DNA of 64,000 nucleotides from Escherichia coli (GTDB taxonomy: Bacteria; Pseudomonadota; Gammaproteobacteria; Enterobacterales; Enterobacteriaceae). A program made the position numbers and the translations under genes. Under the pieces are notes generated by a model. The model did not search any database and was not told the origin of the DNA. It worked only from the letters and a program-made list of their open reading frames with translations. The stretch is taken from assembly GCF_003334335.1 (NCBI RefSeq), contig NZ_QOWQ01000003.1. One strand, 5' to 3'. Positions 63,491 to 63,925 of this stretch are shown piece after piece; positions within the stretch are counted from its first letter, which is position 1, and each line of letters opens with the position of its first letter.

Positions 63491-63673
63491 TTACCAACCA
63501 CAAACATCATGTTCGTTTTCCGTGTCATAAGAACGTACGGTATTCACCAGATCTTTTATCACTTCAGCCGCCACTTCTGGCACCAGCAAAGTCATCGGCG
63601 TCTCTGTTTCATAATCGACAGAAACGCCATTGCTGTTATTGGTGACGGTCACGGTATACGTTGCTTTGCCCAT
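63491..63673 (-). CDS. yoaG: DUF1869-family small protein
   Basis: 60-aa ORF MGKATYTVTVTNNSNGVSVDYETET...; recognised as YoaG. Confidence 0.82.
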   Translation of the reverse strand: MGKATYTVTVTNNSNGVSVDYETETPMTLLVPEVAAEVIKDLVNTVRSYDTENEHDVCGW

Positions 63674-63676
63674 GAT

Positions 63677-63925
63677 TCATTTCCCGTTATGAATGACTTT
63701 CCGTTGTTGCGCACCTTCCATCAGGACTTCAGGAGCCACGAAGAAGTCAATGTTGAAATAAGTATCGTCAGTCATGGCTTCAATGTTGTGCCACTTTTCT
63801 GGAGGGAACACCGCAAACTGCCCCGCTTCGATAAGGATCACCTGATCAGGCTCTGCACTGTGTTCATCAGCGTAGCCGAGATATTTGACCGCCCCATGCA
63901 TAACGGAAAGGCGTGGGTAAACCCC
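63677..63925 (-). pseudogene. yeaR: yeaR (DUF1971) truncated at its 5' end by an IS186-type insertion
   Basis: Reading frame is intact from the stop (63677-63679) up to the GGG codon at 63923-63925, then meets an in-frame TAA (63938-63940) 13 codons upstream of the first ATG; upstream sequence is the IS repeat, not yeaR. From memory, K-12 YeaR is 119 aa (...KGTRPGVYPRLSVMHG...), so only codons 38-119 remain. Confidence 0.7.

Follow-up and report, generated by a model that had tools for sequence, protein, structure and literature searches.

An IS186 insertion splits yeaR and probably leaves yoaG dependent on read-through across the element in Escherichia coli

Results

We analyzed a 64,000-nucleotide stretch of E. 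coli DNA (the window) that ends within a copy of IS186 inserted in yeaR, the first gene of the yeaR-yoaG operon. The explanation that best fits the junction, the matching complete genomes and the published work on the operon is that yeaR is null and that yoaG is transcribed only by read-through across the element, probably with reduced output; we consider this reading likely. The insertion is an already published, recurrent hot-spot mutation and is not new. It is an ordinary gene disruption for which a polar effect is expected, and the mechanism is unsurprising.

The features at the end of the window are as follows (positions are those of the window; yeaR and yoaG are on the minus strand):

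63491-63673, minus strand: yoaG, intact 60-aa open reading frame (ORF), DUF1869; stop codon at 63491-63493 (ORF list)
63674-63676, minus strand: 3-nt spacer between the yeaR stop codon and the yoaG ATG (sequence)
63677-63924, minus strand: 3' remnant of yeaR, codons 38-119 plus the stop codon, without the start codon, ribosome-binding site and first 37 codons (translation)
63899-63901, minus strand: internal ATG, Met46 of YeaR, the earliest possible restart codon, heading a 74-aa ORF (ORF list)
63915-63924, no strand: right-hand copy of the target-site duplication (10 bp), which reads GGGTTTACCC on the yeaR strand (junctions compared in four loci)
63925-63947, minus strand: right terminal inverted repeat of IS186, 23 nt, CATAAGCGCTAACTTAAGGGTTG on the plus strand, common to both ends of the IS (sequence)
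63925-64000, minus strand: last 76 nt of IS186, the transposase-distal end, identical to the IS in loci L002 and L004; the rest of the element is beyond the end of the window

IS186 splits yeaR and leaves yoaG intact

The yoaG gene was intact and yeaR was interrupted. The YoaG product is identical to PDB 1NEI ('yoaG'; PDB sequence match) and is labelled WP_000513737.1 by RefSeq in identical loci; a search of NCBIfam assigned it to no family. The two genes, encoding a DUF1971 protein (YeaR) and a DUF1869 protein (YoaG), are adjacent and co-directional, and the 3-bp separation given in the original prediction was read directly in the sequence. With such a spacing, the two genes could be translationally coupled. 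From its stop codon at 63677-63679, the yeaR frame is open only as far as 63924, at the IS junction. When the two pieces of yeaR were joined and one copy of the repeat was removed, the product was 119 aa and 100% identical to PDB 3BB6 ('YeaR'). The remnant is labelled 'incomplete; missing N-terminus' by RefSeq in identical loci and gave only a weak TehB-N-terminal match in NCBIfam.

The inserted element is IS186, of the IS4 family, although RefSeq labels its transposase 'IS4-like element IS421 family transposase'. The complete element, seen in L002 and L004 (both identical to the window across the junction), is 1,339 bp and encodes a 370-aa transposase, as expected for IS186 (~1.34 kb with one ~370-aa transposase ORF); only its last 76 nt are within the window. 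Terminal inverted repeats typical of the family were present at both ends in all four loci (L001-L004). The first base of the IS is 63925, a position that is ambiguous by 1 nt because of a duplicated G/C. The inner 53 nt of the piece in the window match only the transposase-distal end, the other end agreeing at 35 of 76 bases, so the orientation of the IS can be read from the window alone. In complete genomes matching the window, the IS is located after nt 122 of yeaR with the transposase gene on the yeaR strand. Together with the identity of the right end, this bears out the earlier claim that the transposase gene is oriented like yeaR-yoaG.

The insertion site resembles the known target of IS186. 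IS186 inserts in GGGG(N6/N7)CCCC in either orientation with a duplication that spans the core, and Lee et al. also saw target sites with one or two mismatches (PMC5009759). The empty site, CCCGGGGGTTTACCCACGCC, is GGGG-GTTTAC-CCAC, with a single mismatch to the consensus, in the C block. The second copy of GGGTTTACCC is outside the window, at the left end of the IS. An assembly artefact or chimera was rejected, as the identical junction and target duplication are found in 197 independent complete genomes.

Regions flanking the junction were also found in other strains. Many complete E. coli genomes contained the 651 bases around the junction at 100% identity. Over its last 25 kb (39001-64000), the window was matched best by natural phylogroup-A-type isolates, for example SCPM-O-B-7615, with K-12 derivatives nearly as good; at the junction itself, the K-12 derivative CV601 and the PG2018 mouse-gut isolates matched at 100%. 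The gene order in UMNK88, the K-12-like PG20180052 and SCPM-O-B-7615 is yoaG, a partial yeaR ('missing N-terminus'), an IS transposase gene on the same strand, a partial DUF1971 gene ('missing C-terminus') and leuE.

The native promoter is displaced, not deleted

The nitrate- and NO-responsive promoter of the operon is on the far side of the IS. The original prediction that yeaR and yoaG form one transcript from a promoter upstream of yeaR agrees with the literature, in which yeaR-yoaG is a single documented operon with a NarL 7-2-7 site at -43.5 and an overlapping NsrR site (PMC10853779, PMC7419079, PMC5320621). At the yeaR promoter, one NarL dimer on TAACCAATAAATGGTA, centered at -43.5, acts as the activator (PMC10853779, PMC7419079), and a predicted NsrR site, AAATGGTATTTAAAATGCAAATT, is also present (PMC5320621). 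Both TAACCAATAAATGGTA and AAATGGTATTTAAAATGCAAATT are outside the window and were unchanged upstream of the IS in L001-L004, so that control of the NarL/NsrR type, as named in the original prediction, is both documented (PMC10853779, PMC5320621) and present in these loci.

The separation of yoaG from its promoter is a matter of distance. In complete genomes with a 100% match to the window over 25 kb, the first 122 nt of yeaR and the promoter are on the far side of the IS. The 5' fragment of yeaR encodes 41 native residues, continues for another 13 residues within the IS and ends 12 nt short of the transposase ATG. The distance from the promoter to yoaG is increased by ~1.35 kb. The original prediction had yoaG and the yeaR remnant cut off from their native promoter; the promoter is indeed beyond the IS, but it is intact and merely moved by ~1.35 kb, the IS has the same orientation as the operon and no intrinsic terminator was predicted, so 'cut off' overstates the change.

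Few promoter-like signals between the native promoter and yoaG

We found almost no candidate promoters that could replace the native one. A consensus scan for sigma-70-like sites gave none in the whole 2.3-kb region (2.4 expected), and a relaxed scan gave no promoter-like site with at least 8 of 12 matches from the 3' end of the transposase gene to the yoaG ATG. No sigma-70-like site was found in 63674-63925, even at the relaxed threshold. The terminal ~100 nt of the IS contained no outward -35 or complete promoter in either the consensus or the 8-of-12 scan, both of which are insensitive. In genomic SELEX for constitutive RpoD promoters, the only nearby site was between yoaG and yeaQ and was assigned to yeaQ (PMC3946193). 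Neither scan gave a promoter-like site from 63674 to the 3' end of the transposase gene, and the SELEX promoter near yoaG serves yeaQ. The consensus scan also overlooked the real, activator-dependent yeaR promoter, indicating that the scan is insensitive and that absent hits are weak evidence; judged from the sequence, a weak outward or internal promoter is possible.

The insensitivity of the consensus scans is all that would allow yoaG a promoter of its own inside the 3' part of yeaR (63677-63925), in which case the insertion would have little effect. The empty scan of 63674-63925 and the assignment of the SELEX site to yeaQ both argue against such a promoter, as does the response of the intact operon in CFT073, where nitrate induced yoaG 168-fold and yeaR 160-fold (PMC5320621). 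This near-equal induction fits one shared promoter. We consider a separate yoaG promoter in this interval highly improbable.

A second alternative is that transcription leaving the right end of the IS, from the transposase promoter or from a cryptic outward promoter, makes yoaG constitutive and uncouples it from NarL and NsrR. Many other IS elements activate neighboring genes; here, the transposase gene is co-oriented with yoaG and no terminator follows it. The relaxed scan also gave a candidate extended -10 (TGaTATGAT), with TTAAGG 19 nt upstream, in the left end of the IS just 5' of the transposase ATG, and this candidate is probably the transposase promoter. However, neither the junction nor the final ~230 nt of the IS contained a promoter-like site, and a literature search found no outward promoter for IS186, matches to 'outward' being unrelated uses of the word. 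The two orientations of IS186 at this site are also about equally common (197 versus 255 genomes, see below), which argues against selection for orientation-specific activation. Constitutive expression of yoaG from the IS appears improbable, and neither this alternative nor the separate yoaG promoter has positive support.

Two observations concern the region downstream of yoaG. The yeaQ promoter of Shimada et al., TTGCCC-19 nt-TTTTAT, was found at 63380-63420 on the minus strand; yeaQ has its own promoter, and polar effects of the IS should therefore not reach it. A GC-rich hairpin with a 9-bp stem, GATGGCGCA/TGCGCCATC, lies beyond the yoaG stop codon (63440-63490). A run of A rather than U comes after the hairpin on the yoaG strand, with the T run preceding it on the plus strand, and in sequence it bears little resemblance to a canonical yoaG terminator.

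The yeaR remnant is unlikely to be translated

The internal ATG that had been placed at 63901 is in the ORF list (63899-63901, heading the 74-aa ORF), and between the in-frame TAA in the IS and this ATG there was no alternative ATG, GTG or TTG start. We compared calculated duplexes with the anti-Shine-Dalgarno sequence for the three relevant start codons:

native yeaR ATG (AAGGAGG upstream): -12.2 kcal/mol
internal ATG at 63901: +1.2 kcal/mol, no Shine-Dalgarno sequence
yoaG ATG: -4.3 kcal/mol, weak Shine-Dalgarno sequence

Because the internal ATG has no Shine-Dalgarno sequence, translation of the yeaR remnant is unlikely. With the remnant untranslated, all 422 nt of RNA from the transposase stop codon to the yoaG ATG would go untranslated, and yoaG would be deprived of any coupling to yeaR translation. 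Thus yoaG, whose own Shine-Dalgarno sequence is weak, may also lose translational coupling.

The terminal repeat of the IS contains a TAA in the yeaR frame (63938-63940) and, in another frame, a TAG (63933-63935). Stops in two of the three outward frames are predicted to block most translational read-out into flanking genes. A fusion protein running from the IS into the yeaR remnant was rejected on account of the in-frame TAA.

Read-through with reduced yoaG output is favored over complete loss of yoaG transcription

An insertion of an IS in an operon could also silence the downstream gene altogether. Classical polar insertions of IS1 and IS2 in gal and lac show that distal genes of an operon are expressed less, through termination or uncoupled translation, when an IS interrupts the first gene. 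The insertion in yeaR is like these in being within the first gene of an operon, and differs from them in that no terminator was identified. Applied to yoaG, complete cut-off would mean Rho-dependent termination in the 170-nt untranslated IS tail and the yeaR remnant, with yoaG silent and unresponsive to nitrate or NO. The 422 nt of RNA upstream of yoaG that are predicted to be untranslated are in keeping with this, as is the strong polarity of classical IS insertions in operons; the authors of one study of IS186 likewise assumed that the insertion parts downstream genes from their promoter (PMC6925257).

The terminator searches argue against complete cut-off. No intrinsic terminator was predicted on the yeaR strand, where the only stem was a weak one of 5 bp within the transposase ORF. 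The 481-nt stretch from the 3' end of the transposase gene to yoaG did not fold more stably than shuffled sequences (z score -0.99), which gives no sign of a structured element, and contained no hairpin followed by a U tract. The C/G ratio in the untranslated stretch was 0.6-1.5, with no clear C-rich, G-poor window of the kind found in rut sites; sequence composition thus does not support Rho-dependent polarity. In addition, translation of the transposase ORF over most of the length of the IS would protect the transcript. We therefore regard complete loss of yoaG transcription as rather unlikely.

A further structure was noted directly after the transposase stop codon: a hairpin with a 12-bp stem (AUGGUCAUCUGG...CAGGUGGCCAU) and no U tract, at ~4697-4725 of L002 on the minus strand (equivalent to 64046-64074 in window numbering). 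An AUG inside this hairpin opens a 46-codon ORF that ends at the TAG at 63933-63935 in the terminal inverted repeat. If translated, this ORF could shorten the untranslated gap.

We favor read-through from the native promoter with lowered yoaG output, as follows. A full-length IS186 transposed into the near-consensus GGGG-GTTTAC-CCAC in yeaR after nt 122, in the orientation of the operon and with a 10-bp duplication. This split yeaR into a 41-codon 5' fragment that reads 13 codons into the IS and a 3' remnant that is behind an in-frame stop codon and has no ribosome-binding site, and we infer that the result is a null allele. Having no recognizable promoter of its own, yoaG would be transcribed by read-through of the IS from the native nitrate/NO promoter and from the weak transposase promoter. 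Some nitrate- or NO-inducible read-through into yoaG probably persists, because no intrinsic terminator is predicted. Output is likely to be lower, both because 422 nt of untranslated RNA would give Rho access and because the Shine-Dalgarno sequence of yoaG is weak and coupling to yeaR translation would be gone. An effect of IS186 on yoaG expression is plausible, and its direction and size are inferred from sequence features. The insertion would be present mainly through the target preference of IS186 (a mutational hot spot) rather than a special function.

The insertion is recurrent and occurs in both orientations

We determined how often IS186 is found at this site in 5,426 complete E. coli genomes. 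These counts are of genomes and not of independent events:

uninterrupted yeaR site: 4,963 of 5,426
IS186 at the yeaR site in the orientation of the window: 197 of 5,426
IS186 at the same yeaR position in the opposite orientation: 255 of 5,426
any IS186: 2,185 of 5,426

IS186 was thus at the yeaR site in about 8% of complete genomes and ~21% of those bearing IS186. Insertions of independent origin are shown by the occurrence of both orientations, by the finding of K-12 derivatives with either orientation as well as with an empty site, and by the difference between UMNK88 and UMNF18. These two porcine ETEC strains (NC_017641.1 and NZ_AGTD01000001.1, respectively) share the position of IS186 in yeaR but have it in opposite orientations; as they are presumed from their names to be close relatives, this implies independent insertions or inversion by excision and reinsertion. 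The similar frequencies of the two orientations argue against strong selection for an orientation-specific effect on yoaG.

Insertions in yeaR have been described repeatedly. yeaR::IS186 is in PFM2, a founder strain derived from MG1655 (PMC5009759), and Azevedo et al. described a macrophage-evolved clone with 'yeaR IS186 +10bp coding (122/360 nt)' (PMC4709186). Among the antibiotic-evolved MG1655 lines of Hoeksema et al., many that had evolved independently carried IS186 in yeaR (PMC6307192), and Barroso-Batista et al. found yeaR to be a parallel target in the mouse gut (PMC4674774). A BW25113 megaplate lineage had an IS insertion in yeaR, with the identity of the IS unstated (bioRxiv 10.1101/527788). 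The published insertions in K-12 MG1655 derivatives are like that in the window in element, gene, nucleotide position and 10-bp duplication. They differ in background, the 25 kb of the window being best matched by natural phylogroup-A-type isolates and not specifically by K-12, and the published reports leave the orientation unstated.

That the insertion arose in parallel in the mouse gut and under enrofloxacin could be a sign of selection and not of target preference alone. In an extended form of this idea, the GGGGGTTTACCC site would be a natural, recurrent, orientation-dependent switch, with the high prevalence (about 8% of complete genomes and ~21% of those bearing IS186) and the parallel rises in the mouse gut and under fluoroquinolone reflecting selection for loss of YeaR and not only target preference; we think this doubtful. 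Were it true, co-oriented IS186 would be a separation-of-function allele in which YeaR is lost and yoaG is still nitrate/NO-inducible through read-through, and IS186 in the opposite orientation would silence both yeaR and yoaG.

A classic IS186 insertion outside yeaR is similar in some respects. lon::IS186 in E. coli B involves the same element at a palindromic target of a G run and a C run and recurs in either orientation (PMC6925257, bioRxiv 10.1101/527788), and in it, too, a gene is parted from promoter elements. The lon insertion, however, is intergenic and destroys the promoter itself, whereas at yeaR the promoter is intact and the IS has the orientation of the operon. In the clpX-lon intergenic insertion of REL606 (L005, 4676-5788), lon and the transposase gene are on opposite strands, and the transposase, WP_001300563.1, is identical to the protein of the yeaR copy. 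Because the REL606 transposase gene points away from lon, lon::IS186 was rejected as an analogue for transcription from the right end of the IS.

Implications for strains carrying yeaR::IS186

A yeaR-null allele, possibly with altered yoaG expression, is carried by many laboratory K-12 derivatives and by about 8% of sequenced E. coli; carriers include PFM2, CV601, ET12567 and dam/dcm strains. The allele may matter for phenotypes, because expression of type 1 pili was lowered by deletion of yeaR in UPEC and intracellular bacterial communities show strong induction of the operon (PMC4959519). It could confound nitrosative-stress, nitrate-reporter and UTI-related phenotypes ascribed to yeaR-yoaG. 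Recurrent 'parallel' hits in yeaR should also be weighed against the strong target bias of IS186 before they are called adaptive.

Two variants of the region were observed. In SEV1 (NZ_CP151548.1), SEV4 (NZ_CP154596.1) and others, positions 39001-64000 of the window were matched in two pieces spanning ~776 extra bases, which suggests an additional small insertion, of the size of IS1, somewhere in the region. The IS186 copy in yeaR of UMNK88 (L001, 4577-5919) is 1,343 bp, with four single-base insertions relative to the K-12-type copy, and its transposase gene is annotated as frameshifted; these differences may be real decay or homopolymer errors of an older assembly.
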